A stretch of DNA of 64,000 nt from Eledone cirrhosa (taxonomy: Eukaryota). The stretch lies in the NCBI GenBank assembly GCA_964016885.1, contig OZ024743.1, positions 344,472,001 to 344,536,000 on the forward strand, given 5' to 3'. The position numbers and the translations under genes are program-made. The notes under the pieces were generated by a model. That model saw only the letters and a program-made list of their open reading frames with translations, searched no databases and had not been told where the DNA came from. Shown piece by piece: positions 10,140 to 39,912 of this stretch. Within the stretch, counting starts at the first letter, position 1. Every line of letters starts with the position of its first letter.

Positions 10140-11931
10140 ATGGCCGAAGCTTCTTCACCAAAATTCGAAGGAGGAAAGGGGAAGATGAACTTACAGCTTC
10201 CCCCTGCCACTGTCACAGTAGCAGAGGTCAAGAAGAAAGGTCAGCCAGAGGAAGAATTCTCTCCACCTGTTAACCGACAACTTGACGTTGCCATGGCAAC
10301 AACCCAAAGAACCAGCAGCAACAGCAACAACAACAACAATGCGACGGACGAAAACAACACCAATAACAATAACAATAACAACAAGACCAATAACGGTGAC
10401 AACAACAACAACAATGATAACAACAACACCACCAACGACAACAACAACACAAACAAACAAAATTTCTCCTTCGCCGAGACGACAAGGAAAACCCTCGACT
10501 ATCTGCCAGTAGATATAACAAAAGCGAAGGAACTACTGGCGAATGCGAAAAAATATATAGTGTACGGGGAAAATGGTTCATTCACAATCCATTCCCCCCC
10601 GGAACTAAAAAGCCAGAGACTCCTAAACACGGTCATGTTTAGGACAATCTCGAACAAAAGTAAAAAACCAGCTCAACCATCACAGAGCGAGATAGAGCTG
10701 GTTTTAAAAGACGTCATGAAGGACATCACCTTCATTCAGAAGGATAGACTCTACGGGAGTCTATCCATACTCATGAAGGACAGGGACACAGCAGTGAAAC
10801 TGTCCATCAAACCAATCACATCAACCGCATACACCTTCTACCCTACGTACATGGGTAGAAGAACACAAAAAATAAAAATCCACACCATCCTGCCGATTAT
10901 GGACATATGGTGGGTTTTGACAGGTTTTCTGGACCTGGAGGATGACATGCTGGTGTCCATGGGAAAGGCATCCGGTGACGCGTTCAGTGGAACGAGCCTC
11001 GAACTTGTAGTTCAAATGAGGCCCGAAAGGATCGCCCAGATCCCTGAACGCGTCATACTGGATGATCTAACCTTCATCAACATTACCGTTGAGGGTAGAC
11101 GGCCCTCGTGTTACCTCTGCGGAACCAGAGGTCACCTGAGGGCTGTCTGTCCCCAACTTAATAAGAAAACCCCAATCCTGCCTACACCACCAACAACTGC
11201 ACAACCAACACAATCACCACAACTACCACTACAAAAACAACCACCACAGCTCAAACCAAAACAAAACAATGTCCAACCCATCCCCTCCACTCAAAAAACA
11301 AAAACAATTTCAAAAACACCCGTACCGCAAACACAACCCGAAAATATACCCCTCCCCTCCAACGCGGAAGATGACCCTAGTTCGTCGTCAGACGAGGAGG
11401 AGCACTTCCACACAATCAAAAGAAAAAAAAGAAAACACACCTCAGACACACAAATGAAAAAAAACCCTCCCTAAAACATAACACTGACACCAACACAAAA
11501 GAGCTCACAACAACAGCAAACAAAAAACACCACACAAAAACAAAAACATGCATACACATACATAAATACAAGAAACAAAAAACTGTTAAACATTGTGTAC
11601 AACAACAATCTAATAAAAACACAAGGGCCTAACTTCACCCAGGCAGGGGATTTCCCCCACCTCAAAATGATTAAGGCCCCACAGGACACCTATAAAACTT
11701 TAAAAAACAATTTTAAAGAGGACGTGGGTCCCCCCTCCGTCGGGCCCATTAACCGCGTCCTCCTAAAAAAACTATCCCACCCCCTCCCCAAACACCCACA
11801 CAACTCCAAACTCCCCAACCACACAACACACTGATGCCCCCACACTTCCACAAACCACCACCCCACCCAACAACCCATCCCCCACCCTAATGGAAATTGT
11901 GCAGCCCGATACCCGGGACGCAGAGAGGTAA
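10140..11931 (+). pseudogene. ORF1p (Gag-like, CCHC zinc knuckle), disrupted
   Basis: Asn-rich N-terminus, CYLCGTRGHLRAVC knuckle, KRKKRK. Premature TAA at 11472 (CAA in copy A2) and one extra A near 11765. The natural stop is TAA 11929-11931. Confidence 0.88.
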
Positions 11932-11955
11932 GTGCCTTTTCTCTTCACCACCAAC

Positions 11956-14900
11956 ATGGCTATGCTAAGAGTAGGCTGTTTAAATGCGCGTGGCCTGGGC
12001 TCAACTTGGAAGCAAGCAATGCTTCTAAATGACCTCAGGTCACAACGTATAGATGTGATGGTTATTTGCGAGGCCCGGATCAGCAACGTGCGACAGCTGG
12101 CCCCCACTTTTGATGACTTTGAGATGCACGCATCTCTCTGTCCGCCCGGAGGTGGGGGTGGAGTTGTCGTTCTGCTGCAAAAACATCTGGTTCTCGCAAC
12201 ACAGATGGTACATTTGGACCCGGAGGGTCGACTAGTGGTTCTGGACCTTGGCAGTGGTAAAGGCGGAGCGTTTAGGTTGGTAGCCGCCTACGGCCCTTTC
12301 GGGTCAATGCGGCCGGACTTCTTCCATCGTCTGGAGACTTTTCTAGGGACGTCCCGCTCCTTGCTATTAGTGGGGGACTGGAATGGTATCCTAGATGCAC
12401 GCTGGGACTACGTAGGGGCCTGCCCCGATAGAGAGGGGTGTAATAGCCTCAAAGGGTTAATCGGTCGATTTGACCTGGCCGATAGATATCGACTAGATTT
12501 TCCGACTGCGCCAACCTGGACTTGGGCAAATCGTAGCGGATCATCTAGGTCGTACCTAGATAGGTTCTTAGTTAGAATTAAGGATAAGGACTTTTTAAGT
12601 TGTCCAAAAATGCGCATGGTTGGCTATTCAGACCACAAATTAGTGACCTGCATGGTCAACCTTGACAGAACCCATAGACAGGGCCCCGGTTACTGGAAGC
12701 TCAACTTGTCCTTGCCGGCAAGTAGAGCCTACAGGAATCGGATTAGTACGTTAGTTAAGGAACGGTTGACTGGAGCGATCGTCAACAGCAGGTGGTGGGT
12801 ATCTCTAAAGAGAGAGATTAGAGTAGTCTCGATAGAATTTAGTAAGGCTCTAGCTGCGGATAGGAATAGGAAGGAAAGGGAGCTAATAGATAGAGTAGAA
12901 GAGGCAATTAGAAGCGGCGACGTGGCCAGAGTGCTAGCGTCGAGAACGGCTTTGAGCCAGTTTTTCGACGCGAAGCACGAAGGCTGCGTTGTCCGAAGTA
13001 AAATACGTGCTCTAGGGAACGAGGGGACCAAAGCTGTTAGCTGGGCCCGCGTGACAGAGGCCAACAGTGGAACTAAATCCTCCATCCGGTCTTTGCGAGA
13101 CCTGGATGGACGGGCGATTCTTGAGCCTAAGCAGATGTGTGAGGCCTTTCAAAGGCACTTTGCCCGACTGTTCGGGAGGGGCGGGGAGCCGGTTGGGAAC
13201 GTGGACTTCGGTCCATACCTCGACGGCCTGCCGCGCCTCTCGGACAGGGAGGCGAAGTCCTGCGAGGAGCCGATTTCGGCCGCTGAGATAGAGGACGTGC
13301 TGAGCCAATGCGGCAAACGCAAATCCCCGGGTCTCGATGGTCTTCCTTACGAATTATATCTAGCTATGCCGGACTTGTTCCCCGATCTCCTCGAGGCGGT
13401 CTACTGCAACTGGCAACAGAACGGGAGAATTCCCTGTACTGTGACCAAGGGCGTAGTCACGCTAGTGAGGAAGGACGAGAACAAGGGGGACGAAATAAGT
13501 AACTTCAGGCCCATAACACTGCTAAATACAGAGTTACAGATTTTGGCCAAGGTGCTAGCAAAGAGGTTGGCGCTTGTCGTGGGCAACCTGGTGGGAGATG
13601 CGCAGACATGCGCTATCCCGTCCAGGTCCATCCATGACAACCTCCACCTCATGCGATACATCATAGAGAGGGTTGGGAACGAACCCGGCTTTGGTGGGGC
13701 TCTGATCAACTTGGATCAATCTAAGGCGTTCGATAGGGTCGACCATGGTTACCTGGATGCGGTGCTAGCGGCGGCAGGCTTCGGACCCGTTTTCAGAGGC
13801 TGGATCACTGCTATGCACAGCAGCCGCATCTGCTCTAGGGTCAAGGTGAACGGCTACCTCTCGGAGCCGTTCAAAATCGCGCGGTCCATCCGACAAGGGT
13901 GCCCTCTCTCCTCCCTTCTGTATGTGTTGACTCTCGAGCCACTACTGCGGAAGTTGGAGTTGTTGCAGGGCATCCCCTTGGAACCGGGATTGCGGAAAGC
14001 GGTGTCGGCCTACGCCGATGACGTGACAGTAATGGTGTCGACGGCCTCCGAAATCGAGGCGGTCGGCACCTTACTGGAGGAGTACGAAAGGTTCACAGGG
14101 GCGAAGCTGAACCGGGACAAGTCGATCGGTTTGCAACTCGGCACGTGGAGGGGCAGACCGATGCCCTCCGATAGCGTCGTCGGACGCTGGACGGAGGGCC
14201 CGGTGAAGTTGCTCGGGGTCTGGTTCGGACCGGACCTCCAGGTGGAGACAAACTGGGCGGAGGTTACGAACAGGGTGTTTGCACTGACCCAGAAGTGGGC
14301 CAGTTGCAAACTATCCCTGAAAGGTCGGGCGGAAGTGGCGAACACCTACATAGCGTCCGTCATCTACTACCGCCTGACCGTAGTGCCCTGCCCAAGGGAA
14401 ACCCTCACCAAGATGGAGCGCGCGCTCTTCCAATTCCTTTGGAAGAGGCGGGCTCCTATGGTGAGGAGATCCATCTGCTGTCAACACCCTTCGAAAGGAG
14501 GGCTGGGGATGCCGTGGCTAATGATGCGTAAACACGCATTAAGGCTACGGCACCTCTACGTATTCCTCACCGGACAACCGGTGTGGGCCTCGTTTGTGAG
14601 ACGAACCTTTCCCAGACTCGTCTCACTCACCGAGCTGCAATCCTGGGTCAAGCAAAGACCGAGAAAACTGGGCGCCTGGCACACTGAGTGTGCCCAGGCG
14701 CTCACCGCCCTCTGGCAGGCGGATCCGGTTATCAGTGGAGACTCCACCGCAACATTCTATAGAGGGCTGGTACGCAGCAGGTGCGACGACGCCCTCGGAG
14801 AAGCCCTAGACATGGAGGAGGACGAACTGGCCAGCCTGTTCGGTAGGACATTCAGCCCAGGACCTATGGACAATTTCCAGAAGTCCCTGGCCTGGCAGTG

Positions 14901-15393
14901 CTACCGAGGGGCTTTACCCGTTCGAGAAAGGCTCTACAGACACGGGCGCCCGGGTAGGGACCCCGCCAAAAAGATCTGTCCCAGATGCGTGTGCGACGAG
15001 GAAACCGTTGCACACGCATTGGTACACTGCTCGGGCGTAGCCGATCTGTGGGGCTATGTCGAACAACTGCTGTCAAGGGTGGGACCGATCCGGTTGACCA
15101 CCGAGTCTATTGTAATGATCAAGCCGCCTCCCCCCTTCAAAGATGAAGCAGAGGCGGTGTTTCTGTGCGTAATAGCCATGGCGAAAGAGGTTGTATGGTG
15201 GACGCGTCTGAAAGGACTGAGGTCAGGCACCTTTCTCTCTGGCCAACAACTGGTCCGTTTCTTCCGATATCATTTCGGAAGAAGGATCAGGATGGAGAGA
15301 GAGGTGCTGCACTCCAGCCGTTTCTATGAAAGATGGGTGAAAGTGGCGAGAATGGCCCGTGTGAATGGGCCTTCACTCTACATCAGACTATAG
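11956..15393 (+). CDS. Intact ORF2p: APE endonuclease - reverse transcriptase - C-terminal Zn motif (1145 aa)
   Basis: CLNARGL, GDWN, YLDRFL, SDH (APE); KSPGLDG, DQSKAFDRV, QGCPLS, YADD (RT); CPRC..H..C. ATG in CACCAACATGG context. Confidence 0.96.
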   Translation: MAMLRVGCLNARGLGSTWKQAMLLNDLRSQRIDVMVICEARISNVRQLAPTFDDFEMHASLCPPGGGGGVVVLLQKHLVLATQMVHLDPEGRLVVLDLGSGKGGAFRLVAAYGPFGSMRPDFFHRLETFLGTSRSLLLVGDWNGILDARWDYVGACPDREGCNSLKGLIGRFDLADRYRLDFPTAPTWTWANRSGSSRSYLDRFLVRIKDKDFLSCPKMRMVGYSDHKLVTCMVNLDRTHRQGPGYWKLNLSLPASRAYRNRISTLVKERLTGAIVNSRWWVSLKREIRVVSIEFSKALAADRNRKERELIDRVEEAIRSGDVARVLASRTALSQFFDAKHEGCVVRSKIRALGNEGTKAVSWARVTEANSGTKSSIRSLRDLDGRAILEPKQMCEAFQRHFARLFGRGGEPVGNVDFGPYLDGLPRLSDREAKSCEEPISAAEIEDVLSQCGKRKSPGLDGLPYELYLAMPDLFPDLLEAVYCNWQQNGRIPCTVTKGVVTLVRKDENKGDEISNFRPITLLNTELQILAKVLAKRLALVVGNLVGDAQTCAIPSRSIHDNLHLMRYIIERVGNEPGFGGALINLDQSKAFDRVDHGYLDAVLAAAGFGPVFRGWITAMHSSRICSRVKVNGYLSEPFKIARSIRQGCPLSSLLYVLTLEPLLRKLELLQGIPLEPGLRKAVSAYADDVTVMVSTASEIEAVGTLLEEYERFTGAKLNRDKSIGLQLGTWRGRPMPSDSVVGRWTEGPVKLLGVWFGPDLQVETNWAEVTNRVFALTQKWASCKLSLKGRAEVANTYIASVIYYRLTVVPCPRETLTKMERALFQFLWKRRAPMVRRSICCQHPSKGGLGMPWLMMRKHALRLRHLYVFLTGQPVWASFVRRTFPRLVSLTELQSWVKQRPRKLGAWHTECAQALTALWQADPVISGDSTATFYRGLVRSRCDDALGEALDMEEDELASLFGRTFSPGPMDNFQKSLAWQCYRGALPVRERLYRHGRPGRDPAKKICPRCVCDEETVAHALVHCSGVADLWGYVEQLLSRVGPIRLTTESIVMIKPPPPFKDEAEAVFLCVIAMAKEVVWWTRLKGLRSGTFLSGQQLVRFFRYHFGRRIRMEREVLHSSRFYERWVKVARMARVNGPSLYIRL

Positions 15394-15674
15394 GTGAGGA
15401 AGATGAAAGACCAAGGGAGCACCCCTTCTCTGTGCTCCTGAGGAGAAGGGTTGCACACTTTTTTCGGGGGTGTGTGCGACCCCCCAAGGCGCCTCCTCTC
15501 TATTGAGGATTTTGTTAAAAATTTTATTTTTTGTTATATCTTATTTTATTTTTATATTTTGTTATTGCCTCCTCCTTATTGAGGACGCCTTTTTGTGTAA
15601 ACTCCCCCCTTTGTACTTGTCCCACTTTTGATGCCCTAGTGGCAAATAAAAGAAACATATCTATCTATCTATCT

Positions 15675-16034
15675 CAAATATTATTTTGGAAGAAGAATCA
15701 GGATGGAGAGAGAGGTGCTGTACCCCAGCAAATTTTATAAAAGGTGGGTGAATGTGGCAAAGATGTCCCGAGTGGTTGGGTCTTCTCTCTATATAAGCCT
15801 GTAGGTTGAGGAAACAGAGGAAGAGAGGAGGGGAGTACTCACTCTTGTTGCTCCTGGAGATGAGGGTTGCACATTTTTCGGGGTGTGTACAAGTCCTGTG
15901 TAACGCCTCCCCCTTATTGGGAATTTCAATTGTTATTTATTATTTTATTAATAGTTTTATTTTCATATACTTGTATGTAAACTGCCCATTTGTATTTGTC
16001 CCCTTCTTTTGTGCCCTTGTGGCTAATAAAGAAA
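15675..16034 (+). mobile_element. Tx1-like 3' stub of a fifth family (E)
   Basis: Last codons of ORF2, then CTGTAG|GTTGAGG, then a divergent 3' UTR. TATC on both sides. Confidence 0.88.
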
Positions 16035-16272
16035 TTTATCTATCTTTCTATCTATCTATCTATCTATCTATCTACCTATGTATCTATGTATCTATCTCTC
16101 TGACTGTCTATCTATCAATTTCTAAATCACTTTATCTCTCTGCCTGCCTGTCTGTCTACCTGCCTTTCTGTTTGTCTGTCTGCCTCTCTGTCTACTTGAC
16201 TTGTCTGTCTGTCTGTCTGTTTATCTATTTCTCCATCCACCCATCTATTCACCCATCTATCTATCCATCCAT

Positions 16273-16308
<36 letters not shown>

Positions 16309-16315
16309 ATATATA

Positions 16316-16350
<35 letters not shown>

Positions 16351-16351
<1 letters not shown>

Positions 16352-16432
16352 ATTTTACACGTTTTTATTGTATGTAAACTTCCCCCTTTGTATTTGTCCC
16401 CTTCTTTTGTGCCCCTGTGGCTAATAAAGAAA
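16351..16432 (+). mobile_element. Tx1-like family B 3'-terminal stub (~80 bp)
   Basis: Matches the last ~80 nt of element B. TATC on both sides. Confidence 0.88.
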
Positions 16433-16669
16433 TATATCTATCTATCTATCAGACATGTGTAACTTCGCGGAGAAGTTTCCGTTAATTTATGTAAGAAAAA
16501 AACGTGAGTTTTTAGTTAAATTTTATATCATTGTGTAACTTGACCACCCGTCTGGACCTTCAGGTGGTGGGTCAACTCATTTTTGCCCCCTACAGGGGCG
16601 GAATATCCATTTAAAAAAATTTTTCTCCATCGAATCTTGGAAAAAATATTGTAAAATTTTGATTACGTT

Positions 16670-18586
16670 ATGAACGCTGCGTCCAACGATAATGGTGGTG
16701 GAGAGGCGGTAAGACTACAAAGCTCGCAGTCAACAACGTCTTCTTCACTAGATACTATAGAGATGGAAAGACAAAATGAAAATAAAAAAACGAATTCATA
16801 TCTAAACAACACAAATGACACCAAACCGTTCAATGACAACAAAAATAACAGCAAAACCAATAATGATGATAAAAGCAACAATGATAACAACAACAAAGAA
16901 AAAAATAAAGACAACGCCAATAACACCAGCATCAAAGACAACAACAACACCAAGGAAAATACGGATGATACCAACATCGGTGACAACAAGAATAACAACA
17001 AGAATAACAACAATAATGACAACACCACCAATACGGATTCCACAAAGAAACCAAAAATCTCCTTTGCAGAGAAAGTTCAAAAGAAAGAACAATTGATATA
17101 TCTCGACATAACAAATGCTGAACAACTTTTAAAGGACGCTAAGAGATATGTCACTTTCGATAAAAATGGTGCTTTCAGCATCAATTCTCCGGTAGAAATT
17201 CGCAAGGAAACTGCTCTCAAAACGATAGTTTTTAGGACAGTTTCCAATTCTACCCGAAAACCAGTCCAATTGTCGCAGAAAGAAATTGAACAGGTTTTCA
17301 AAAATTCAATGAATGATATTGCATTCATTCAAAGAAGCAAACTTTTTGGGAGTATTTCGGTACTGATGAAGGATCAATTGACGGCCCAAAATTACTCTGT
17401 GTCGCCAATTGTATCCAACCTGTACACCTTTTTCCCTACATACATGGGAAAAAGGACACAAAAGATCAGAATCACAAGTGTCACACCAAAGGTGAACATA
17501 TGGTGGATACTGTGCGGCTTCATCAATTTTGATGAAGATAGAATACTGTCAGTAGGAAAGTCCCCCAGAGATGTATTCAATGGGACTAGCATTGAAGTTC
17601 TGGTGCAAATGAGCCCAGAGCGAATAGCTATGATCCCACAGCGTGTACTCCTGGACGGACTCACCTACATAAACCTTTCGGTTGAGGGTAGGCGGCCTTC
17701 ATGTTACCATTGCTTTAGCAGGGGTCACCTGAGGGCTTCCTGTCCTAAACTAATGAACCAAAAAAAGGCTCTTCTGCCGACACCCATCAAAACAACACAA
17801 GCACCAACACCACCACAACAACAACAACACCAACACACAAAAATAACCACAACAAACACAGTCCCACCCAACCCCATTCCACCTAAAACCACTGCAAAAT
17901 CACATACAGACACAACAGCTCCCCAAGACATACCCCTCCCCAATCACACAGACGATACAACAGATGAGGCTATCTCGCCATCACCCAGTGAAGACGAGGG
18001 AGAACCCCATCGCTCGAAAAGAAAGAAAAGACATCACAAAAGCAAAAAACCAGCAAACACTACCACAAACATACAACCACCAACACAAACAACAAAAATA
18101 TCACAAACAAAACCCCCACCTCCTGAAAACAAAATACCTACAACAAAACGAAAGCACACCCAAGAACTACAGACAAAAACAAACACAACACAAGAAAATT
18201 ACACTTACACTTACATAAACACTGAAAACAAAACACTAATGGAGACCATCACGAACGACCCTTCGGTTCTCACCGAAGGGAAAACTTTCGCCCACTCTAT
18301 AAAAAATAGCAAAAAACTGAACCTAAAACTGATTAGGGTCCCTATACAAACTTATAGGTCCCTAAAAGAAACATTTGAGAAGGATGTGGGTAATTCCTGC
18401 GTGAAACCACTCAACCGCGTCCTTCTCAAATGCCTCCCCACCCAAGACACCCCCATCCCACCAGACCCCACCCCACCAAACATCTGCGTCCCCACCCCGC
18501 CGGAAACCACCACCCATCCAGACAATCCCTCCAACACCCCCATGGAAATCGTGCGGCCTGGTCCCCAGGAGGCGAAGGGTGAGTGA
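16670..18586 (+). CDS. Intact ORF1p, 638 aa (CCHC knuckle)
   Basis: CYHCFSRGHLRASC; shares FPTYMGKRTQKI, WW, VEGRRP and DVG..NRVLLK blocks with the other ORF1s. Confidence 0.92.
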   Translation: MNAASNDNGGGEAVRLQSSQSTTSSSLDTIEMERQNENKKTNSYLNNTNDTKPFNDNKNNSKTNNDDKSNNDNNNKEKNKDNANNTSIKDNNNTKENTDDTNIGDNKNNNKNNNNNDNTTNTDSTKKPKISFAEKVQKKEQLIYLDITNAEQLLKDAKRYVTFDKNGAFSINSPVEIRKETALKTIVFRTVSNSTRKPVQLSQKEIEQVFKNSMNDIAFIQRSKLFGSISVLMKDQLTAQNYSVSPIVSNLYTFFPTYMGKRTQKIRITSVTPKVNIWWILCGFINFDEDRILSVGKSPRDVFNGTSIEVLVQMSPERIAMIPQRVLLDGLTYINLSVEGRRPSCYHCFSRGHLRASCPKLMNQKKALLPTPIKTTQAPTPPQQQQHQHTKITTTNTVPPNPIPPKTTAKSHTDTTAPQDIPLPNHTDDTTDEAISPSPSEDEGEPHRSKRKKRHHKSKKPANTTTNIQPPTQTTKISQTKPPPPENKIPTTKRKHTQELQTKTNTTQENYTYTYINTENKTLMETITNDPSVLTEGKTFAHSIKNSKKLNLKLIRVPIQTYRSLKETFEKDVGNSCVKPLNRVLLKCLPTQDTPIPPDPTPPNICVPTPPETTTHPDNPSNTPMEIVRPGPQEAKGE

Positions 18587-18619
18587 TCTCTTTTCCTCTT
18601 TTAACTTTTCAGCACCAAC

Positions 18620-21600
18620 ATGGCCAATATAAGAGTTGGATGTGTGAACGTACGCGGCCTGGAGATGCCCTGGAAACAGGGCAAACTCTTAAACGACCTC
18701 AGGTCGCACAGTATGGATGTGGTAGCCATTTGCGAGTCCAGGATCCACGGCGAGCGACAGCTGGCCCCCATCTTCGATGACTTTGAGATCTACGCATCTC
18801 TCTGTCAACCGCGGGGTGGGGCGGAGTTGCCGTTTTGCTGCGGAAACACCTGGGCCTCGTAACACAGACGGTACATCTGGACCCGGAGGGTCGACTGGTG
18901 GTCCTAGACGTTGACGGTAGTGAAGGTGGAGCCTTCAGGCTGGTGGCCGCATATGCCCCATCCGGGACACCGCGGCCAGACTTCTTCAAACGTCTAGAGG
19001 CTTTTCTGGGAACGTCCCGCTCCTTGCTTTTAGTGGGGGACTGGAATGGAATCCTAGATGCACGTTGGGACTATGTGGGAGCATGTCCCGATAAAGGGGG
19101 GTGTAACAGCCTCAAACAGTTAATCGACCGATTTGACCTGGCCGATAGATATCGACTAGATTTTCCGACTGCGCCACTGTGGACGTGGAGTAATCGTAGC
19201 GGAACATCTAGATCGTACCTAGATAGGGTTCTAGTTAGAAATAAGGATAGAGACATGTTAAGCTGTCCACAAATGTTCATGGTTGCCTATTCAGATCACA
19301 AACTAGTGACCTGCATGGCCAACCTTGATAGAACCCATAGACAAGGACCCGGCTACTAGAAGCTGAACTTGTCGTTACCGACAAGCAAAGCCTACAGTAG
19401 ACGGATTAGCACTTTAGTTAAACAGCACTTGACAGGGGCCATTGTCAACAACAGATGGTGGTACTCTCTCAAGAGGGTAGTTAGATTAGACTCGATAGTT
19501 TTTAGTAAAGAAATAGCATTAGATAGAAATAGAACCGAGAAGGAACTGGTAGATAAAGTAGAAGAGGCAATTAGAAGTGGCAACGTAGCCAGCGTGCTAG
19601 CAACGAGAACGGCCTTGGACCAGTTCTTCGACGCAAAGCACGAGGGCTGCGTTGTCAGAAGAAAAATACGTGCTCTGGGAAACGAGGGAGCCAAAGTTGT
19701 TAGCTGGGCCCGAGTGACGGAGGCAAAAAGTGGCAACAAGTCCACGATTCGGTCTTTGAAGGACCAAAACGGACGCGTGATACGTGAGCCGAAGCAGATG
19801 TGTGCGGCTTTTCAGCGGCACTTTGCTCGGCTGTTCGGGAGGAGCGGCGCGCCGGGAGAGGCTATGGATTTCGGTCCATACCTCGACGGCCTACCGCGAC
19901 TCTCGGACAGCGGGGCAAAGTTCTGCGAAAAGCCGATTTCAGCCACTGAGATAGGGGACGCGCTGAGCCAATGCGGCAAACGCAAATCTCCAGGTCTCGA
20001 CGGTCTACCCTACGAATTTTACGTAGCAATGCCGGAATTATTCTCCGGTCTCCTGGAAGCGGTCTACTGCAACTGGCAACAGAACGGGAGAATTCCCAGT
20101 TCTGTAACCGGGGGCGTGTTCACACTAATCAGGAAGGACGAGAATAAGGGGGATGACATAGGCAACTTCCGGCCCATAACTCTGCTAAACACAGAGTTAC
20201 AGATTTTGGCCAAGGTGTTGGCAAAGAGGCTGGCGCTTGTCGTCGAGAACCTGGTGGGAGAAGCGCAAACATGCGCAATCCCGACCAGGTCCATACACGA
20301 CAATCTCCACCTCATGCGATACATCATAGAGAGGGTAGGGTGTAAACCCGGCTTCAGTGGGGCCCTGATCAACTTGGATCAGTCTAAGGCTTTCGATAGG
20401 GTTGACCATCGTTACCTGGATGCGGTGCTCGAGGCGGCAGGCTTCGGACCCGTGTTCAAGGGCTGGATCGCTGCAATGCACAACAGCAACATCTGCTCAA
20501 GGGTCAAGGTGAACGGCTACCTCTCGGAGCCGTTCCATATTATGCGATCCATTCGACAGGGATGCCCTCTCTCCTCCCTTCTGTACGTACTGACTCTCGA
20601 GTCACTACTGCGGAAGCTGGAGCTATTGCAGGGCATCCCTCTGGAACCGGGACTGCGGAAAGCGGCGTCGGCCTACGCCGACGACGTGACAGTAATGGTG
20701 TCGAGCGCCTCGCAAATCGAGGAAGTCGGCACCTTACTGAAGGAATACGAAAGTCTCACAGGAGCGAAGCTGAACCGGGACAAGTCCATCGGTTTGCAAC
20801 TCGGATCGTGGAGAGGCAGACCGATGCCTTCCGATGGCGTCGTCGGACGCTGGATGGAAGGACCGGTAAAGCTGCTCGGGGTCTGGTTTGGTCCGGACCT
20901 CCAGGTGGAGAAGAACTGGAACGAAGTGACGGCCAAGGTGTTTGCACTCACCCAGAACTGGGCCGAGTGCAAACTATCCTTGAAAGGTCGAGCGGAGGTG
21001 GCGAAGACTTTTATAGCGTCCGCCATCTACTACCGCTTGACCGTCGTGCCTTGTCCAGCCAAAACGCTCGCCAAAATGGAGCGCGCGCTCTTCCGATTCC
21101 TTTGGAAGAGGCGGGCTCCTTTGGTGAGAAGATCCATCTGCTGCCAACACCCTTCTAACGGAGGGCTGGGGATTCCGTGGTTGACGATGCGCAAACACGC
21201 GCTCAGGCTGCGGCATCTCTACGTATTCCTCACCGGACAACCGGTGTGGGCCCCGTTCGTGTGGCGAGCCTTCCCACGACTCGTCTCGCTGACCGAGCTG
21301 CAGTCCTGGGTCAAGCAAAGACCGAGGAAAATGGGCGACTGGCACATCGAATGTACTCAGGCGCTCACAGCCCTCTGGCAGGCGGACCCGGCGATCAGTG
21401 GAGACTCCACTTCGTCATTCTATAGAGGGTTAGTCCGCAGCAAGTGCGACGACGCGCTCGGTGAAACTCTAGGCGTAGAGGAAGATGAACTGGCCAGTCT
21501 GTTCGGTAGGACCTTCCGCCCGGGACCGATGGACAACTTCTAAAAGTCCCTGGCCTGGCAGTGCTACCGAGGAGCTCTACCAGTTCGAAACAAGCTCTAC

Positions 21601-22296: not shown

Positions 22297-22382
<86 letters not shown>

Positions 22383-24444: not shown

Positions 24445-24485
24445 GTGCACCTTTCGTCCTTTTTCTCCAACTTTTCTTCACCAAC

Positions 24486-28164: not shown

Positions 28165-28260
<96 letters not shown>

Positions 28261-28465
28261 CTGGGATGGACACACGCGTATAACTTGCTGAGTAAGTTCT
28301 ATAGAAATTCTTGTCTGATAACTTTAATTTTTGTACCATTTTGTAGAGGGACTGCCAGGTCAAACTTTGATCTGGTCAGTCTCTCAAAATATTCTACGCC
28401 TTTAGGCGAAATAGTTAAACAAAAAAAAAAAGTTTTTTCTTGTTGAAAAGTCAATATTTTTTTAA

Positions 28466-30254
28466 ATGGCCGAAGCTTCTTCACCAAAATTCGAAGGAGG
28501 AAAGGGGAAGATGAACTTACAGCTTCCCCCTGCCACTGTCACAGTAGCAGAGGTCAAGAAGAAAGGTCAGCCAGAGGAAGAATTCTCTCCACCTGTTAAC
28601 CGACAACTTGACGTTGCCATGGCAACAACTCAAAGAACCAGCAGCAACAGCAACAACAACAATGCGACGGACGAAAACAACACCAATAACAATAACAATA
28701 ACAACAACAAGACCAATAACGGTGACAACAACAACAATGATAACAACAACACCACCAACGACAACAACAACACAAACAAACAAAATTTCTCCTTCGCCGA
28801 GACGACAAGGAAAACCCTCGACTATCTGCCAGTAGATATAACAAAAGCGAAGGAGCTACTGGCGGATGCGAAAAAATATATAGTGTACGGGGAAAATGGT
28901 TCATTCACAATCCATTCCCCCCCGGAACTAAAAAGCCAGAGACTCCTAAACACGGTCATGTTTAGGACAATCTCGAACAAAAGTAAAAAACCAGCTCAAC
29001 CATCACAGAGCGAGATAGAGCTGGTTTTAAAAGACGTCATGAAGGACATCACCTTCATTCAGAAGGATAGACTCTACGGGAGTCTATCCATTCTCATGAA
29101 GGACAGGGACACAGCAGTGAAACTGTCCATCAAACCAATCACATCCACCGCATACACCTTCTACCCTACGTACATGGGTAGAAGAACACAAAAAATAAAA
29201 ATCCACACCATCCTGCCGATTATGGACATATGGTGGGTTTTGACAGGTTTTCTGGACCTGGAGGATGACATGCTGGTGTCCATGGGAAAGACATCGGGTG
29301 ACGCGTTCAGTGGAACGAGCCTCGAACTTGTAGTTCAAATGAGGCCCGAAAGGATCGCCCAGATCCCTGAACGCGTCATACTGGATGATCTAACCTTCAT
29401 CAACATTACCGTTGAGGGTAGACGGCCCTCGTGTTACCTCTGCGGAACCAGAGGTCACCTGAGGGCTGTCTGTCCCCAACTTAATAAGAAAACCCCAATC
29501 CTGCCTACACCACCAACAACTGCACAACCAACACAATCACCACAACTACCACTACAAAAACAACCACCACAGCTCAAACCAAAACAAAACAATGTCCAAC
29601 CCATCCCCTCCACTCAAAAAACAAAAACAATTTCCAAAACACCCGTACCGCAAACACAACCCGAAAATATACCCCTCCCCTCCAACGCGGAAGATGACCC
29701 TAGTTCGTCGTCAGACGAGGAGGAGCACTTCCACACAATCAAAAGAAAAAAAAAGAAAACACACCTCAGACACACAAATGAAAAAAAACCCTCCCCAAAA
29801 CATAACACTGACACCAACACAAAAGAGCTCACAACAACAGCAAACAAAAAACACCACACAAAAACAAAAACATGCATACACATACATAAATACAAGAAAC
29901 AAAAAACTGTTAAACATTGTGTACAACAACAATCTAATAAAAACACAAGGGCCTAACTTCACCCAGGCAGGGGATTTCCCCCACCTCAAAATGATTAAGG
30001 CCCCACAGGACACCTATAAAACTTTAAAAAACAATTTTAAAGAGGACGTGGGTCCCCCCTGCGTCGGGCCCATTAACCGCGTCCTCCTAAAAAACTATCC
30101 CACCCCCTCCCCAAACACCCTCACAACTCCAAGCTCCCCAACCACACAACACACTGATGCCCCCACACTTCCACAAACCACCACCCCACCCAACAACCCA
30201 TCCCCCACCCTAATGGAAATTGTGCAGCCCGATACCCGGGACGCAGAGAGGTAA
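28466..30254 (+). pseudogene. ORF1p with one extra A near 29750
   Basis: A9 run versus A8 in copy 1. The C-terminus (..DAER*) is in ORF 29592-30254. Confidence 0.88.
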
Positions 30255-30278
30255 GTGCCTTTTCTCTTCACCACCAAC

Positions 30279-33200
30279 ATGGCTATGCTAAGAGTAGGCT
30301 GTTTAAATGCGCGTGGCCTGGGCTCAACTTGGAAGCAAGCAATGCTTCTAAATGACCTCAGGTCACAACGTATAGATGTGATGGTTATTTGCGAGGCCCG
30401 GATCAGCAACGTGCGACAGCTGGCCCCCACCTTTGATGACTTTGAGATGCACGCATCTCTCTGTCAGCCCGGAGGTGGGGGTGGAGTTGTCGTTCTGCTG
30501 CAAAAACATCTGGGTCTCGCAACACAGATGGTACATTTGGACCCGGAGGGTCGACTAGTGGTTCTGGACCTTGGCAGTGGTAAAGGCGGAGCGTTTAGGT
30601 TGGTAGCCGCCTACGGCCCTTTCGGGTCAATGCGGCCGGACTTCTTCCATCGTCTGGAGACTTTTCTGGGGACGTCCCGCTCCTTGCTATTAGTGGGGGA
30701 CTGGAATGGTATCCTAGATGCACGCTGGGACTACGTAGGGGCCTGCCCCGATAGAGAGGGGTGTAATAGCCTCAAAGGGTTAATCGGTCGATTTGACCTG
30801 GCCGATAGATATCGACTAGATTTTCCGACTGCGCCAACCTGGACTTGGGCAAATCGTAGCGGATCATCTAGGTCGTACCTAGATAGGTTCTTAGTTAGAA
30901 TTAAGGATAAGGACTTTTTAAGTTGTCCAAAAATGCGCATTGTTGGCTATTCAGACCACAAATTAGTGACCTGCATGGTCAACCTTGACAGAACTCATAG
31001 ATAGGGCCCCGGTTACTGGAAGCTCAACTTGTCCTTGCCGGCAAGTAGAGCCTACAGGAATCGGATTAGTACGTTAGTTAAGGAACGGTTGACTGGAGCG
31101 ATCGTCAACAGCAGGTGGTGGGTATCTCTAAAGAGAGAGATTAGAGTAGTCTCGATTGAATTTAGTAAGGTTCTAGCTGCGGATAGGAATAGGAAGGAAA
31201 GGGAGCTAATAGATAGAGTAGAAGAGGCAATTAGAAGCGGCGACGTGGCCAGAGTGCTAGCGTCGAGAACGGCTTTGAGCCAGTTTTTCGACGCGAAGCA
31301 CGAAGGCTGCGTTGTCCGAAGTAAAATACGTGCTCTAGGGAACGAGGGGGCCAAAGCTGTTAGCTGGGCCCGCGTGACAGAGGCCAACAGTGGAACTAAA
31401 TCCACCATCCGGTCTTTGCGAGACCTGGATGGACGGGCGATTCTTGAGCCTAAGCAGATGTGTGAGGCCTTTCAAAGGCACTTTGCCCGACTGTTCGGGA
31501 GGGGCGGGGAGCCGGTTGGGAACGTGGACTTCGGTCCATACCTCGACGGCCTGCCGCGCCTCTCGGACAGGGAGGCGAAGTCCTGCGAGGAGCCGATTTC
31601 GGCCGCTGAGATAGAGGACGTGCTGAGCCAATGCGGCAAACGCAAATCCCCGGGTCTCGATGGTCTTCCTTACGAATTATATCTAGCTATGCCGGACTTG
31701 TTCCCCGATCTCCTCGAGGCGGTCTACTGCAACTGGCAACAGAACGGGAGAATTCCCTGTACTGTGACCAAGGGCGTAGTCACGCTAGTGAGGAAGGACG
31801 AGAACAAGGGGGACGAAATAAGTAACTTCAGGCCCATAACACTGCTAAATACAGAGTTACAGATTTTGGCCAAGGTGCTAGCAAAGAGGTTGGCGCTTGT
31901 CGTGGGCAACCTGGTGGGAGATGCGCAGACATGCGCTATCCCGTCCAGGTCCATCCATGACAACCTCCACCTCATGCGATACATCATAGAGAGGGTTGGG
32001 AACGAACCCGGCTTTGGTGGGGCTCTGATCAACTTGGATCAATCTAAGGCGTTCGATAGGGTCGACCATGGTTACCTGGATGCGGTGCTAGCGGCGGCAG
32101 GCTTCGGACCCGTTTTCAGGGGCTGGATCACTGCTATGCACAGCAGCCGCATCTGCTCTAGGGTCAAGGTGAACGGCTACCTCTCGGAGCCGTTCAAAAT
32201 CGCGCGGTCCATCCGACAAGGGTGCCCTCTCTCCTCCCTTCTGTATGTGTTGACTCTCGAGCCACTACTGCGGAAGTTGGAGTTGTTGCAGGGCATCCCT
32301 TTGGAACCGGGATTGCGGAAAGCGGTGTCGGCCTACGCCGATGACGTGACAGTAATGGTGTCGACGGCCTCCGAAATCGAGGCGGTCGGCACCTTACTGG
32401 AGGAGTACGAAAAGTTCACAGGGGCTAAGCTGAACCGGGACAAGTCGATCGGTTTGCAACTCGGCACGTGGAGGAGCAGACCGATGCCCTCCGATAGCGT
32501 CGTCGGACGCTGGACGGAGGGCCCGGTGAAGTTGCTCGGGGTCTGGTTCGGACCGGACCTCCAGGTGGAGAAAAACTGGGCGGAGGTTACGAACAGGGTG
32601 TTTGCACTGACCCAGAAGTGGGCCAGTTGCAAACTATCCCTGAAAGGTCGGGCGGAGGTGGCGAACACCTACATAGCGTCCGTCATCTACTACCGCCTGA
32701 CCGTAGTGCCCTGCCCAAGGGAAACCCTCACCAAGATGGAGCGCGCGCTCTTCCAATTCCTTTGGAAGAGGCGGGCTCCTATGGTGAGGAGATCCATCTG
32801 CTGTCAACACCCTTCGAAAGGAGGGCTGGGGATGCCGTGGCTAATGATGCGTAAACACGCATTAAGGCTACGGCACCTCTACGTATTCCTCACCGGACAA
32901 CCGGTGTGGGCCTCGTTTGTGAGACGAACCTTTCCCAGACTCGTCTCACTCACCGAGCTGCAATCCTGGGTCAAGCAAAGACCGAGAAAACTGGGCGCCT
33001 GGCACACTGAGTGTGCCCAGGCGCTCACCGCCCTCTGGCAGGCGGATCCGGTTATCAGTGGAGACTCCACCGCAACATTCTATAGAGGGCTGGTACGCAG
33101 CAGGTGCGACGACGCCCTCGAAGAAGCCCTAGACATGGAGGAGGACGAACTGGCCAGCCTGTTCGGTAGGACATTCAGCCCGGGACCTATGGACAACTTC

Positions 33201-33716
33201 CAGAAGTCCCTGGCCTGGCAGTGCTACCGAGGGGCTTTACCCGTTCGAGAAAGGCTCTACAGACACGGGCGCCCGGGTAGGGACCCCGCCAAAAAGATCT
33301 GTCCCAGATGCGTGTGCGACGAGGAAACCGTTGCACACGCATTAGTACACTGCTCGGGCGTAGCCGATCTGTGGGGCTATGTCGAACAACTGCTGTCAAG
33401 GGTGGGACCGATCCGGTTGACCACCGAGTCTATTGTAATGATCAAGCCGCCTCCCCCCTTCAAAGATGAAGCAGAGGCGGTGTTTCTGTGCGTAATAGCC
33501 ATGGCGAAAGAGGTTGTATGGTGGACGCGTCTGAAAGGACTGAGGTCGGGCACCTTTCTCTCTGGCCAACAACTGGTCCGTTTCTTCCGATATCATTTCG
33601 GAAGAAGGATCAGGATGGAGAGAGAGGTGCTGCACCCCAGCCGTTTCTATGAAAGATGGGTGAAAGTGGCGAGAATGGCCTGTGTGAATGGGCCTTCACT
33701 CTACATCAGACTATAG
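30279..33716 (+). pseudogene. ORF2 with one premature stop
   Basis: TAG at 31002-31004 (CAG in copy 1); the rest is open. Confidence 0.92.
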
Positions 33717-34017
33717 GTGAGGAAGATGAAAGACCAAGGGAGCACCCCTTCTCTGTGCTTCTGAGGAGAAGGGTTGCACACTTTTTTCGGGGGTGTGTGC
33801 GACCCCCCAAGGCGCCTCCTCTCTATTGAGGATTTTGTTAAAAATTTTATTTTTTGTTATATCTTATTTTATTTTTATATTTTGTTATTGCCTTCTCCTT
33901 ATTGAGGACGCCTTTTTGTGTAAACTCCCCCCTTTGTACTTGTCCCACTTTTGATGCCCTAGTGGCAAATAAAAGAAATATATCTATCTATCTATCTATC
34001 TTTCTATCTATCTATCT

Positions 34018-37000
34018 CTGTAATCTAGCTGTCGTCTGTTCGATAGCGTAGACGTAATTAACTTCGCGCAGAAGTTTTGTTCCAATTTATTGCGGAAATT
34101 TTGTAAGTTTAATTTTAATTTTGATACTATTGTGTAGCTTGACCCCCCGTCTGAACTGTCAGGCGGTGGGTCAGCTCATTTTCGCCCCTCCCAGGGGTGA
34201 AAAACCTGATTTAAAAAAATTTTGTTGCATAAAATTTCAATCGTCTGGGAGAAATGTTAAACGAAGCTAACGAAAATAGTGGTGGGGAGACAGCAGTAAG
34301 AGTTGTAAGCTCGCACGCTTTAGTCCCCCCCCCTTCCTTCCCAACTAACGTCATAGAGAAGGAAAGAAAAAATAAAATAAAAACAGACGAATGTGCGGAG
34401 AAAAATGTCCACGAAAACACAAATCTGGAGATTGATTCCAACAACAAAAAAAATTTTAAAGAATTGCATGACAATATTAATACCACAAACAAAGAAACAA
34501 CAAACACAAAAATAACATTTGAAAACAACAACATCATAACAGAAAGCAAAACAGACGACAAAGTCAACACCAATAACAACTCATTTGCACAAACAACAAA
34601 AAAATCTTTAACATACCTGAAAATATTTCAGATGTGGCACAAAGAATAAAAAACGCCAAACAATTCATAACTCAAGGGGAAAATGGAGCCTTGTCAGTAA
34701 AAATGCCCCAAGAACTCACCAAAGATATTGAAAGTCGGACGGACGTTTTCCGCACCATCAACAACATCTCAAAAAAGCCACAACAACCAACACAAGCAGA
34801 AATTAAAGCGGTACTTAGAGAAGTACTTAATGAAGCCACTTTCATAAGAAGAGACAGGCTCTAATGGAAGCCTAGCCATTATTATGAACAACGAATCGGC
34901 GGCAAAAAAAATATGCTTTGTCGCCGATTCGTTCGACAAATTTTACCCTTTATCCATCTTATATAGGTAAAAGAACTCAGCGCATATGGCTGGATGCGAT
35001 GATGCCAGATATGGACTACTGCTGGCTCATAGCTGGCTTCACCGATCCAGCGAATGACAACTGTGATTTCCATTGAGAAAACCACAGGCAATGCGTTCAG
35101 TGGAACAGGTATAGAATTTGTAGTGCAAATGAAGCCTGAACGCATTGCCCAAATACCCGACAGAATCCTATTAGAGGGCCACGGGTATATAAACATTAGC
35201 GTGGAGGGGAGAAGGCCGTCCTGTCATATCTGTGCAGGCAGAGGGCACCTGAAGGCGGCTTGTCCCCAACTCAACAAGAAGAAAACCCTGCTACAAACAC
35301 CAGCTCCACCACCACCACAACAGATAAACAAACAACAAACTCAGTCCCACCCAACCCGTCCCTCAGTAAAACTACACTACCACCACAGCACAAACAGACA
35401 CAACACATTGCCCAAAAACAAAACACAGTCCCACCCAACCCCTCACTCAATAAAACAACACAACCACCGCAGCCACAACACACAACACACTCTAACATAG
35501 TAACATCCATCTCCCCCACAAAGAAAACTAACACGGAAACATTACCAGCAAACATACCTCTTCCCTCCAACACTGAAGATAACCCAACGAATTCGGAGGA
35601 AGAAACGGAGTCCTTCAGACAGATTAAAAGGAAAAAAAGAAAACATGTGCAAAACACACAAGGCCAAACAGCCCCTACCCAAATGTCAACACAATCCAAC
35701 AAAACACAAAACACCCCTCCAGCAACAAACAAAACAAAACCTGCCCCCCCCCTCTTCGAAACACTCACACCATCCGAAAAAAAGACATTACACTATACTT
35801 AGATCAACAGAAACAATAATAAATTAAATGAACTTATAAACAATAACCCTTCGGTACAAACCGAAGAGGTAAACTTTGTTTCTTCAGAAAACTACCCACA
35901 TTTAAAATTAATAAAGATCCCAATGAACCTCTACCAAAAACTAAAAAAGGATTTTAAGGAGGACGTAGGACCACCCTCTGTCAAACCCATAAACCGCGTC
36001 CTCCTAAAAAGCTTTCCCTCTCCCCTTCCCCTCCCCAATACAACTCCAAACACCCCAACCCCACCACACACTGACGACCCCACACCACCACAAGACACCC
36101 CTTCACCCAACACCCCCGACCCCATGGAAGTCGTGCGATCCGAACCCCGGGAAGCAGAAAGGTAGGTCTCTACACTCTCCTTTGGTTTGCCGCCCACATG
36201 GATGTGTTAAGAGTAGGATGTTTGAATACACGTGGCCTGGGCTCAACTTGGAAGCAAGCAAAGCTTCTAAATGACCTCAGGTCACGTGGTATAAATGTAA
36301 TGGTTATCTGTGAGACTCGGATCAGCGTCGTGCGGCAGCTGGCCCCTACCTTTGAGGACTTTGAGGTGCACGCATCTCTCTGTCAACCTGGAGGTGGGGG
36401 TGAGGTTGTCGTACTGCTGGAAAAACACCTGGGTCTCGCCGTACAGGTTATTCACTCGGACCCGGAAGGTCGTTTGTTGGTGCTAGACGTTGGCAGTAGT
36501 GGAGGTGCGGCCTTGAGACTGGTCGCCGTCTACACCCCTTTCGGAGCTGAACGACCCGACTTCTTCCAGCGTCTGGAGACTTTTCTGGGAACGTCGCGTT
36601 CCCTGTTTCTAGCAGGGGACTGGAATGATATCCTAGATGCACGTTGGGACTATGCAGGAGCATGTCCTAATAGAGGGGGTGTAACAGCCTCCAGGGGTTA
36701 CTCGACCGTTTTAACTTGGTCGATAGATATCGACTAGATTTTCCAACTGTGCCAACCTGGACTTGGACGAACCATAGTGGTCAATCTAGATCGTACTTAG
36801 ATAGATTCTGAGTTAGAAGTAAGGATAGGGACATATTAAGCTGTCCAGAAATGCTCACGGTTGGCTATACAGATCACAAATTAGTGACCTGCGTAGTCAA
36901 CATCGAGAGAACACATAGACAGGGTCCCGGTTACTGGAAACTTAATTTGTCTTTACCGGCAAAAGATGCTTACAGAGACCGGATTAGCAGATTAGTTAAG

Positions 37001-39873
37001 GAGAGGTTGACGGATTGAACGGTGCAATCGTCAACAACCGATGGTGGGCATCTCTCAAAAGAGAGATTAGAACAGAATCAATAAGTTATAGCAAGATGTT
37101 AGCTGCCGATAGGAATAGCAACGAGAAAGAATTAACAGGTAAATTAGAAGAGGCAATCAAGAGCGAAGATGTGGCCAGAGTGCTTGCATCGAGGACGGCT
37201 TTGAGCCAGTTTTTCGATGCAAAGCACGAAGGCTGCGTCATTCGAAGTAAAATACGTGCTCTGGGTAATGAGGGGGCCAAAGCCGTTGGCTCCGCCCGCG
37301 TGACAGAAGCTAAGAGTGGAAATCGATCCACTATCCGGTCTTTGCAAGACGAGGATGGGCGGGTGATCCGGGAGCCTAAGTAGATGTGCGAGGCCTTTCA
37401 AAGGCACTTTGCCCGATTGTTCGGGGGAGGCGGCGGTCCGGGGGAGGCGGCGGTCCGGGCGAGGACGTGGATTTCGGTCCATACTTCGACGGCCTGCCGC
37501 GTCTCTCGAGCGAAGAGGCAGAGTCCTGCGAGGGACCAATCTCGGCTGATGAGATCGGGGATGCGCTGAGCCAATGCAGCAAACGCAAATCTCCAGGTCT
37601 CGATGGTATACCTTACGAACTTTATTTGGCAATGCCGGTCTTCTTCTCCGAACTCCTCGAAGCAGTCTACTGCAATTGGCAGCAGAACGGGAGTATTCCT
37701 TGTTCTGTAGCCAAGGGCGTAGTCTCGCTGGTGACGAAGGACGAGAACAAGGGGGATAGTATAAATCATTTTCGGCCCATAACCCTGCTAAACACAGAGT
37801 TAAAGATTTTGGCCAAGGTGTTAGCAAAGAGGTTGGCGCTTGTCGTGGGTAGCCTGGTGGGAGATGCGCAGACATGTGCTATCCCATCCAGGTCCATTCA
37901 CGACAACCTCCACCTCATGCGATACATCATAGAGAGGGTTGGCAACAAACCCGGCTTCGGTGGGGCCCTGATCAACTTGGATCAGTCTAAGGCGTTCGAT
38001 AGGGTCGACCATGGTTACCTGGATGCAGTGCTAGCGGCGGCTGGGTTCGGTCCTGTTTTCAGAGGCTGGATCACTGCCTTACATAGCAACCACATCTGTT
38101 CTAGGATCAAGGTGAACGGCTACCTTTCGAAGCCGTTGGAAATCACACGATCCATTCGACAGGGGTGCCCTCTCTCCTCCCTTCTGTACGTATTGACTCT
38201 CGAGCCTTTACTGAGGAAGTTGGAGTTGTTGCAGGGTATCCCCCTGGAACCAGGATTGAGCAAAGCGGTTTCGGCCTACGCCGATGACGTAACAGTAATG
38301 GTATCGACCGACTCGGAGATCGAGGCGATCGGCACCTTACTGGAGGAATACGAAAGGTTGTCAGGAGCGAAACTGAACCGGAAAAAATCTATCGGACTGC
38401 AACTCGGAACGTGGAGAGGCAGACCGATGCCTCCCGACGGTGTCGTCGGACACTGGACCGAGGGCTCGATGAAGTTGCTTGGAGTCTGGTTTGGACCGGA
38501 CCTCCAGGTGGAAAAGAACTGGGGCGAGGTTACGAGCAAGGTGTTTGCACTGACCCAGAAATGGGCCAAGTGTAAGCTGTCCCCGAAAGGTCGGGCGGAG
38601 GTGGCGAACATTTACATAGCATCCGTCACCTACTACCGCCTGACTGTCGTGCCTTGCCCTAATGAAACACTCACCACCATGGAACGCATGCTCTTTCAAT
38701 TTCTTTGGAAAAAGCGCCCTCCTATGGTGAGAAGATCCATCTGCTGCCAACAACCTTCGAAAGGAGGGCTGGGGATGCCGTGGTTGATGATGCGTAGCCA
38801 CGCATTAAGGCTACGGCACCTACAGGTATTCCTCACTGGTCAACCGGTGTGGGCTCCGTTTGTGAGACGAGCCTTTCCAAGACTCGTCTCGCTAACCGAG
38901 CTGCAGTCCTGGGTCAAGCAAAGATCCGGAAAACTGGGCGACTGGCACACTGAGTGCGCCCAGGCGCTCAGGGCTCTCTGGCAAGAGGACCCGGCCATCG
39001 GTGGAGAATCCACCTCGTCATTCTATAGAGGGCTGGTGGCTAGCAGGGGCGATGACACCCTTGGAGAGTCGCTGGACATGGAAAAGGACGAACTGGCCAG
39101 CCTGTTCGGTAGGACTTTCGGCCCGGGACCAATGGACAACTTCCAGAAGTCACTGGCCTGGCAGTGCTACCGGGGGCTCTACCCGTTCGAGAAAAGCTCT
39201 ACAGACACGGGCGCCCGGGCAGGGATCCCTCGAAAAAGATTTGCCCTAGATGCGTGCGTCACGAAGAAACCGTTGCGCACGCATTGGTGCAATGTCCGGG
39301 CGTGGCTGATCTGTGGGGCTACGCCGAACGACTGCTGTCGCGGGTGGCGCCGATTCGATTGACCGCCGAGTCCGTGATGACAATCAAGCCGCCTCCCCTC
39401 TTCACAAAGGAAGCAAAGGCGGTTTTTCTGTGCATAATAGCCATGTTGAAAGAGGTGCTTTGGTGGACACGATTGAAAGGTCTGAGGTCAGGCAACTTCC
39501 TCTCTGGCCATAGTCTGGTCTACTTCTTCCGATATCACTTCGGAAGAAGGATAAGAATGGAGAGAGAGGTGCTTGGCCACAGGCAGTTTTATGAAAGGTG
39601 GGTGATAGTGGCGAGAATGGCTCGTGTAAATGGGCCTTCTCTGTATACCATCCTGCAGGTAAAGAAGTGAAGGAGAGGGGAGCACCTTCTCCATGTGCTC
39701 CCCGGGCAAAGGATTGCACACTTTTTCGGGGGTGTGTGCAACCCCCATCACATCCCCTCCCTTTTGAGGTTGTTTTTGATTATTTTCATTTTATACCCTT
39801 TTTACTCGGTTTTATGTAAACTCCCCTTTTGTATTTGTCCCTTCTTTTTATGCCTTTATGGTAAATAAAGAAA
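34018..39873 (+). mobile_element. Full-length, more decayed Tx1-like LINE, family D
   Basis: ORF1 remnants 34254-36165 (CHICAGRGHLKAAC) and ORF2 remnants 36198-39670 with several frameshifts and stops. TATC-bounded. Confidence 0.92.
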
Positions 39874-39879
39874 TATATT

Positions 39880-39912
<33 letters not shown>

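Follow-up and report, generated by a model that had tools for sequence, protein, structure and literature searches.

Can a long interspersed nuclear element (LINE) carry the whole of its second open reading frame (ORF) as an intron? The question is raised by a 64,000-nt stretch of the Eledone cirrhosa genome (assembly GCA_964016885.1, contig OZ024743.1, positions 344,472,001 to 344,536,000 of the forward strand; hereafter the window), in which the region from 9.6 to 39.9 kb consists of five full-length, head-to-tail two-ORF LINEs (A1, B, C, A2 and D) and three 5'-truncated 3' ends, each of them closed by AATAAA and then (TATC)n. The initial annotation of this window proposed that ORF2 of every full copy lies between a 5' splice site at the ORF1 stop and an acceptor at the ORF2 end. 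Our analysis supports the first part of this proposal, that is, a 5' splice site under selection at the end of ORF1, conserved across a deep clade of LINEs. Removal of the entire ORF2 as an intron is plausible from the sequence, and we give roughly even odds (about 0.5) to the reading that these elements produce a copia-like ORF1-only mRNA, spliced from the ORF1-end donor to an acceptor located at the ORF2 stop or beyond it.

Donors had been annotated at 11928, 18579, 24441, 30251 and 36162; positions and motifs were all confirmed, and the donors go well beyond chance. A1, an L1/Tx1-like LINE between (TATC)n runs (9922..15674, on the + strand like the rest of the array; AATAAA at 15645), has an ORF1 which starts at 10140, is broken near 11474 and stops at 11931, its TAA being overlapped by the predicted 5' splice site GAG/GTAAGT (11925..11933, donor 11928, phase 2). 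An AG-free pyrimidine spacer leads from this donor to the ATG of an intact ORF2 (11956-15393, 1,145 aa) coding for endonuclease, reverse transcriptase (RT) and zf-RVT domains. A2 (28261..34017 with its tail, donor 30251) is 98% identical to A1 and has one internal stop in ORF2 (30279-33716). B (16452..22387 with its tail, AATAAA at 22286) combines an intact ORF1 (16670-18586, 638 aa) with a broken ORF2 (18620-22056), and its predicted donor AGG/GTGAGT (18576..18584, donor 18579) is in phase 1, the stop following 5 nt downstream. Both ORFs of C (22388..28260 with its tail; ORF1 22680-24444, ORF2 24486-27931, AATAAA at 28156) are frameshifted, and the predicted donor AAG/GTAAGT (24438..24446, donor 24441) is in phase 2. 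The decayed copy D (34045..39918 with its tail, the 5' end being approximate) carries AAG/GTAGGT at 36162. In B, as in B2 and L161 (family letters past A-D were coined in this analysis), the ORF2 ATG is also closely preceded by a CAG and a well-formed pyrimidine tract (window 18579-18622); lying 34 nt past the B donor, this CAG would leave too short an intron and is a possible acceptor for some upstream donor.

Donor strength was measured with a simple U1-match score and acceptor strength as a pyrimidine count. Within the 60 nt that precede the ORF2 ATG, the best donor by the U1 score takes one of the first three ranks among the 271-397 GT sites of the element in 13 of 14 elements, the sole miss being the distant family X2; in an intact A copy (L152) it is the best of 281 GT sites. 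A comparable donor is expected by chance with a probability of 0.011-0.022 per 31-nt stretch, and only 2 of 30 distant L1/Tx1-type loci (those with a usable ORF1 end among the 81 examined) have one near the ORF1 stop. The donor persists at ORF2 DNA identities down to 69-70% among octopod families. It is present in 20 of 20 loci of the young family H, which was found by protein search and shares 68% ORF2 identity with A1, and in further families recovered by an anchored search (the first 100 of 2,348 matches inspected by eye, a total possibly inflated by the variable gap). When 15 representatives were aligned, donor positions -2 to +6 agreed in 12-15 rows and the flanks in 5-11; the rows had been chosen by a donor-like pattern, so that +1, +2 and +6 are fixed by construction, and the decayed L157 and X2 were excluded. 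Local folding at the donor was uninformative. Selection on the donor is better supported by the U1 ranks, by family H and by the distant family X1 (28 of 28 contexts, see below) than the initial annotation could show.

The encoded protein does not explain this conservation, since the position of the ORF1 stop differs by family: it falls inside the donor in phase 2 (A, A', A'', B2, C, D, F, H, K and M), 5 nt after it in phase 1 (B, E and, by eye, G) and before it in X1. Two related ORF1 proteins end in EGKS (Argonauta) and QGK, the reading expected of a phase-1 donor, at the protein level only. The same mobility of the stop makes it very improbable that the motif is a translation signal, in which a stop context and a spacer for reinitiation at ORF2 would resemble a donor by accident. 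TAA does occur within GTAAGT, and the spacer is short, pyrimidine-rich and ends in a strong ATG context, but the 9-nt U1 match holds while the stop moves, the variants GTGAGT, GTAGGT and GTAATT are all donor variants, and the inter-ORF frame is unconserved. Readthrough from ORF1 into ORF2 was rejected, as that frame varies between families.

More distant copies came from a scan of prokaryote genome contigs, in which a relative, its ORF2 40-41% identical, forms tandem arrays filed under a bacterial metagenome-assembled genome. The contigs concerned (CAXXMW01..., loci L168-L208, L212 and L216) are made of tandem LINE arrays and are likely to be host-animal DNA binned by mistake. The ORF1 of X1 is homologous to the octopod ORF1 (probability 98.3), its ORF2 being 41% identical. 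Its donor lies 1 nt past the ORF1 stop, wholly outside the coding sequence, and 28 of 28 distinct contexts keep it unchanged, with positions +7 to +9 varying. A second donor, GTRAGT, stands at the ORF2 stop (19/19), and a YAG acceptor about 240-280 nt beyond it (22/22) offers a ready partner. X2 has a donor only at its 3' end, at the ORF2 stop, followed 143 nt later by a very strong acceptor. The 3' untranslated regions (UTRs) of L168-L169 and L170-L207 contain an apparent complete intron, whose donor coincides with the ORF2 stop or closely follows it and whose strong acceptor comes 140-280 nt later. In the 5' UTR of X1, a donor-like site is paired in a hairpin and followed by a U-rich stretch ending in CAG. 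A 5' UTR intron was considered and rejected: donor- and acceptor-like sites are unaligned between families, and the apparent donors of A and C are, by eye, hairpin arms that B and D keep without GT.

If the preferred reading is correct, some transcripts would be spliced from the ORF1-end donor across ORF2 to give an ORF1-only mRNA of about 2.3 kb (the predicted introns of the five window copies measure 3,466-3,497 nt), and the unspliced 5.8-kb RNA would serve both as the source of ORF2p and as the template copied into the genome. A joint at the ORF1 stop would hardly alter ORF1p and would give a short 3' UTR. The spliced RNA would form a translation pool without acting as a template, and its purpose would presumably be to raise ORF1p relative to ORF2p. 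The partner acceptor should lie no earlier than the ORF2 stop and ahead of the polyadenylation (polyA) signal, and every lineage contains at least one candidate there: probably the TAG/G at the ORF2 stop in TATC-targeting families, a 3' UTR CAG behind a U-tract in the H/K lineage (strong, and present in 20/20 H loci), and the 3' UTR acceptor in X1. The scarcity of AG in the distal 3' UTRs also speaks for this reading, their last 110 nt containing AG 21 times vs 43 for GA and 54 expected for AG (19 related sequences). Somewhat short of even odds, in our estimate, is the broader scenario, in which a deep LINE clade of octopods and at least one other animal host would have independently evolved the copia strategy, with ORF2 as a facultative 3.5-kb intron whose splicing sets the ORF1p:ORF2p ratio and separates the translated and replicated pools; in X1, the donors at both ORF ends would compete for one 3' UTR acceptor and give three RNA classes.

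The acceptor is the less certain partner. All five window copies do carry YAG/G at the ORF2 end, as annotated: TAG/G in A1 (15376..15399, AG ending at 15393), B (22039..22062, 22056), C (27914..27937, 27931) and A2 (33716), and CAG/G in D (39658). TAG/G is found in 12 of 14 aligned representatives, but 40% of two-fold synonymous sites are near-invariant in the same ORF2 alignment, so that retention of the TAG gives weak support for an acceptor. The site is the stop codon itself, and the pyrimidine-rich run that the initial annotation saw before it is real yet modest (10-13 of 17 positions) and codes for the Pro-Ser-Leu end of the protein; each element has 4-19 YAG sites, the end site included, that score at least as well. 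Across the clade the motif does not hold: in family H, ORF2 ends in TAA without any YAG there (20/20 loci), and other families weaken the site to TAG/A or TAG/T. The claim that D keeps the AG although it is not a stop did not survive, since 98 of the first 100 listed of 1,377 D-type ORF2 ends read TAG and 2 read CAG; the CAG of the window copy is thus a rare variant and no family trait. The 3' UTR acceptor of H is also present in relatives that retain the TAG, and compensation for a lost TAG is therefore not demonstrated. A rival CAG lies 7 nt upstream in A1, and the TAG/GT of several octopod families also reads as a donor. As the ORF2-end motif is a donor in X1 and X2 as well, it is possible that the site in octopods is no acceptor. 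That the acceptor of A-D is exactly the ORF2 TAG we regard as somewhat less likely than not. X2, moreover, has no donor at its ORF1 end.

Joining the annotated sites had appeared to restore the ORF1 stop at once, and in the window it does so for A, B and D. An immediate stop is also predicted for B2, F and M, and a stop one residue later for E, making 7 of 11 families (a count excluding G, in which the wrong GT was picked), and 27-99 extra residues are predicted in A', A'', C and K, the 27 of C agreeing with the initial annotation. The UTR after the GT is 88% purine, so that a stop should follow about 57% of the time by composition; 7 of 11 is about the chance level, and the restored stop loses its value as evidence. 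On the ORF2 tree, read by parsimony, one phase change can be paired with a one-base acceptor change, and C remains uncompensated.

It would be conceivable that the donor splices elsewhere than to the ORF2-stop AG, whether to an acceptor inside ORF2, to a distal AG of the 3' UTR, to the next tandem element or to the host. In 14/14 representatives, a YAG behind a pyrimidine tract stands at ORF2 position 415, a strong TAG acceptor-like site precedes AATAAA in A (window 15621-15650), where it is common only to A'' and M, and the elements do stand in tandem arrays. Against this, X1 keeps the TTA codon at 415 without AG, conserved acceptor-like columns number 6 on the sense strand vs 13-22 on the antisense strand, an internal joint would have no nearby polyA signal, and the distal AG is missing in B, B2, C, D and F. 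Internal ORF2 acceptors were accordingly rejected as codon-explained and no commoner than on the antisense strand, and we regard splicing to any of these other sites as quite unlikely.

No acceptor comes near the donor in conservation, and the match of the donor predicts binding by the U1 small nuclear ribonucleoprotein (snRNP). Conceivably, the donor binds U1 snRNP, is rarely spliced, and governs the stability, export or 3'-end formation of the full-length RNA, for instance by keeping polyA signals in the A-rich ORF1 silent. Retroviruses provide models of such decoy donors, namely the negative regulator of splicing (NRS) of Rous sarcoma virus and the major donor of human immunodeficiency virus, which silences the polyA site of the 5' long terminal repeat (LTR). 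In A and D, an AATAAA precedes the donor by about 250-340 nt, both ORF ends of X1 bear donors, and U1 blocks premature termination in Arabidopsis EVD (PMC5580714). That role of U1 in EVD accompanies real splicing, however, and a decoy would have no need to sit within 5 nt of the ORF1 stop. ORF2 is free of polyA hexamers in 7 of 8 copies, leaving little downstream for U1 to shield, and well-formed downstream acceptors exist in X1, X2 and H. We therefore consider a rarely spliced U1 site unlikely, though not negligible.

If the spliced RNA were mobilised in trans, as the initial annotation suggested, ORF1-only copies with exact junctions should be found in the 3.0-Gb genome. The integrated copies are unspliced. 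The unspliced A/D motif gave 1,817 matches and the corresponding junction pattern none, which places spliced A/D copies below about 0.2% (rule of three); a looser pattern for A, A', A'', B2, D and F also gave none. No match was obtained with the B/C or the H junction pattern, neither of which had a matched positive control, and the upstream-AG junction gave one match, with no element-like sequence between the anchors, vs three in the control. Together these patterns cover the families named, the E joint standing outside them. The first base of the donor is changed in 14 copies: 13 are point mutants or one-base insertions running on into ORF2, and the fourteenth (L220), which is also unspliced, keeps the spacer and the ORF2 start before an internal deletion. 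No ORF1-only unit was found in 41 X1 loci. Thus neither the five junction searches nor the 14 donor-break copies yielded a true spliced copy, and mobilisation in trans is not supported. This counts against splicing as such, given that human L1 leaves spliced copies at about 1.8% of full-length copies (PMC5860796); those spliced L1 RNAs, however, still encode ORF2. Splicing is nonetheless not removed by the lack of genomic copies, because copia, too, favours full-length RNA (10.1101/2023.05.27.542554, in the text available).

No RNA junction from the ORF1-end donor was observed. In four contig runs of unrecorded kind on A1, the joint 11927->15394 was outside the 15 joints listed (of 92; lowest listed depth 13.8), but contigs drop rare variants and show presence only, so that its absence speaks neither for nor against splicing; had the joint gone to the distal AG ahead of AATAAA, too few letters would have fallen on the A1 stretch for it to register. 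Contig depth across the donor went down in run X4 and up in run X1; such depth cannot rank gene parts and was left unused. Two ORF1 word searches returned nothing, and among ORF1 relatives retrieved by profile search, all from distant families, the 23 C-termini inspected by eye contained no predicted spliced tail. One public record of 2,209 bases (P0099) holds a complete 603-aa ORF1 and comes near the predicted size of the spliced ORF1 mRNA; it may be an assembly fragment.

The elements themselves resemble the Tx1 clade. ORF2 matches PF03372, PF00078 and PF13966 (APE endonuclease, RT and C-terminal zinc finger), its closest relative of solved structure is human L1 ORF2p (E 4e-47), and among named sequences it is nearest to one of Argonauta hians (62%); for ORF1, the named relatives belong to Octopus species and Argonauta. 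A zinc knuckle, C-x2-C-x4-H-x4-C, is invariant in eight of eight ORF1s, its Pfam match staying below the cut-off; a CCHC knuckle in ORF1 is a Tx1 feature. Two ORFs, the three ORF2 domains, one ORF1 knuckle and microsatellite targets are all shared with Kibi, Koshi and the crocodilian Tx1, as far as the consulted part of PMC4494074 describes them. The targets here are instead (TATC)n and (ATT)n, and membership of the Tx1 clade is tentative: the RT tree unites the octopod families with X1 and X2 in a single clade (18 of 32 rows, support 100), with long deeper branches and no curated Tx1 reference among the rows. In the ORF2 tree, TATC-targeting and ATT-targeting families form two branches. Family H (L112-L131 and L148-L150; ATT-targeting) appears young, its 50 best matches all being free of internal stops and several following one another in tandem at intervals of about 6 kb. 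PMC13282606 counts L1-Tx1 among the recently active elements of Octopus vulgaris, and neither the text searched there nor the part of PMC4494074 consulted describes splicing of Tx1 elements. Rfam gave no match, and viral contigs contained no relatives.

Outside the Tx1 clade, the closest parallels are the Drosophila copia 2.1-kb gag RNA, the shGAG of plant Ty1/Copia elements (EVD) and BARE1, in which a conserved donor likewise lies near the end of the structural gene and, as predicted here, at least about 3 kb of enzyme-coding sequence is removed, with spliced RNA used for translation and unspliced RNA for replication. The copia intron is about 3 kb long and terminates in the 3' LTR (PMC5580714 and 10.1101/2023.05.27.542554, in part), and spliced BARE RNA forms a separate translated pool (PMC3735527, accessible portion). 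Those are, however, single-ORF LTR elements which need splicing to create a stop, whereas the present elements are two-ORF non-LTR LINEs, no members of copia, whose ORF1 has its own stop and whose splicing is predicted from sequence. Human L1 RNA, which yields SpIREs and SpORF2, also has spliceosomal sites, but its donor is in the 5' UTR, and the products, which are described as dead ends, are deprived of promoter or ORF1 sequence and do leave copies in the genome (PMC5860796 and PMC2896524, as far as their text was available); here, the donor is at the ORF1 stop, is deeply conserved and has left no spliced copies that could be found. HAL1 resembles the predicted RNA as an ORF1-only product of an L1-type element and differs in consisting of genomic non-autonomous elements (PMC5753468, in the part seen), no ORF1-only genomic copy with the present junctions having been found. 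Zebrafish ZfL2-1 has splice sites. Introns have also been reported in L1, Tad, kangaroo-1, Penelope and Athena transcripts (PMC1636488, from its accessible text). No description of a LINE whose ORF2 is excised from a donor at the end of ORF1 was found in the literature searchable outside subscription papers and Repbase reports. ORF2 excision would plausibly be the copia-type strategy, already known, occurring in a LINE, and a prior description is possible.

TATC-type repeats (one of them degenerate) flank all four A copies that have a 5' end, a fifth being without one, and ATT runs precede three of three H-type copies; the array therefore likely grew by insertion into the tails of earlier elements. 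A1 itself is inserted into a B-like, 5'-truncated 3' end with a (TATC)n tail (9613..9921, +), and two further truncated 3' ends with (TATC)n (15676-16036 and 16352-16450, +; region 15676..16451) separate A1 from B. Fragments of other retroelements occur on the - strand at 6511-8981 and 54529-55842 (RT hits at 7249-8139 and 54532-55842) and, without Pfam hit, at 4501-4884 (-) and 52157-53044 (+). At the right edge of the window (62570-64000; also L231:986-2430) lies an old, internally deleted relative with an E/I-like 3' end and an ATT tail, in which the deletion joint lies elsewhere than at the donor.

A LINE requires much more ORF1p than ORF2p, and textbooks attribute the difference to poor reinitiation on one bicistronic RNA. 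If the ORF1-only mRNA is real, these elements would represent a second, convergent solution to the excess of ORF1p over ORF2p, and they would place the mobility of an abundant, young repeat family under the control of host splicing. Even if it served as a U1 decoy, a splice signal that persists down to 41% ORF2 identity would be an RNA control element of a kind that our searches did not find reported for LINEs.

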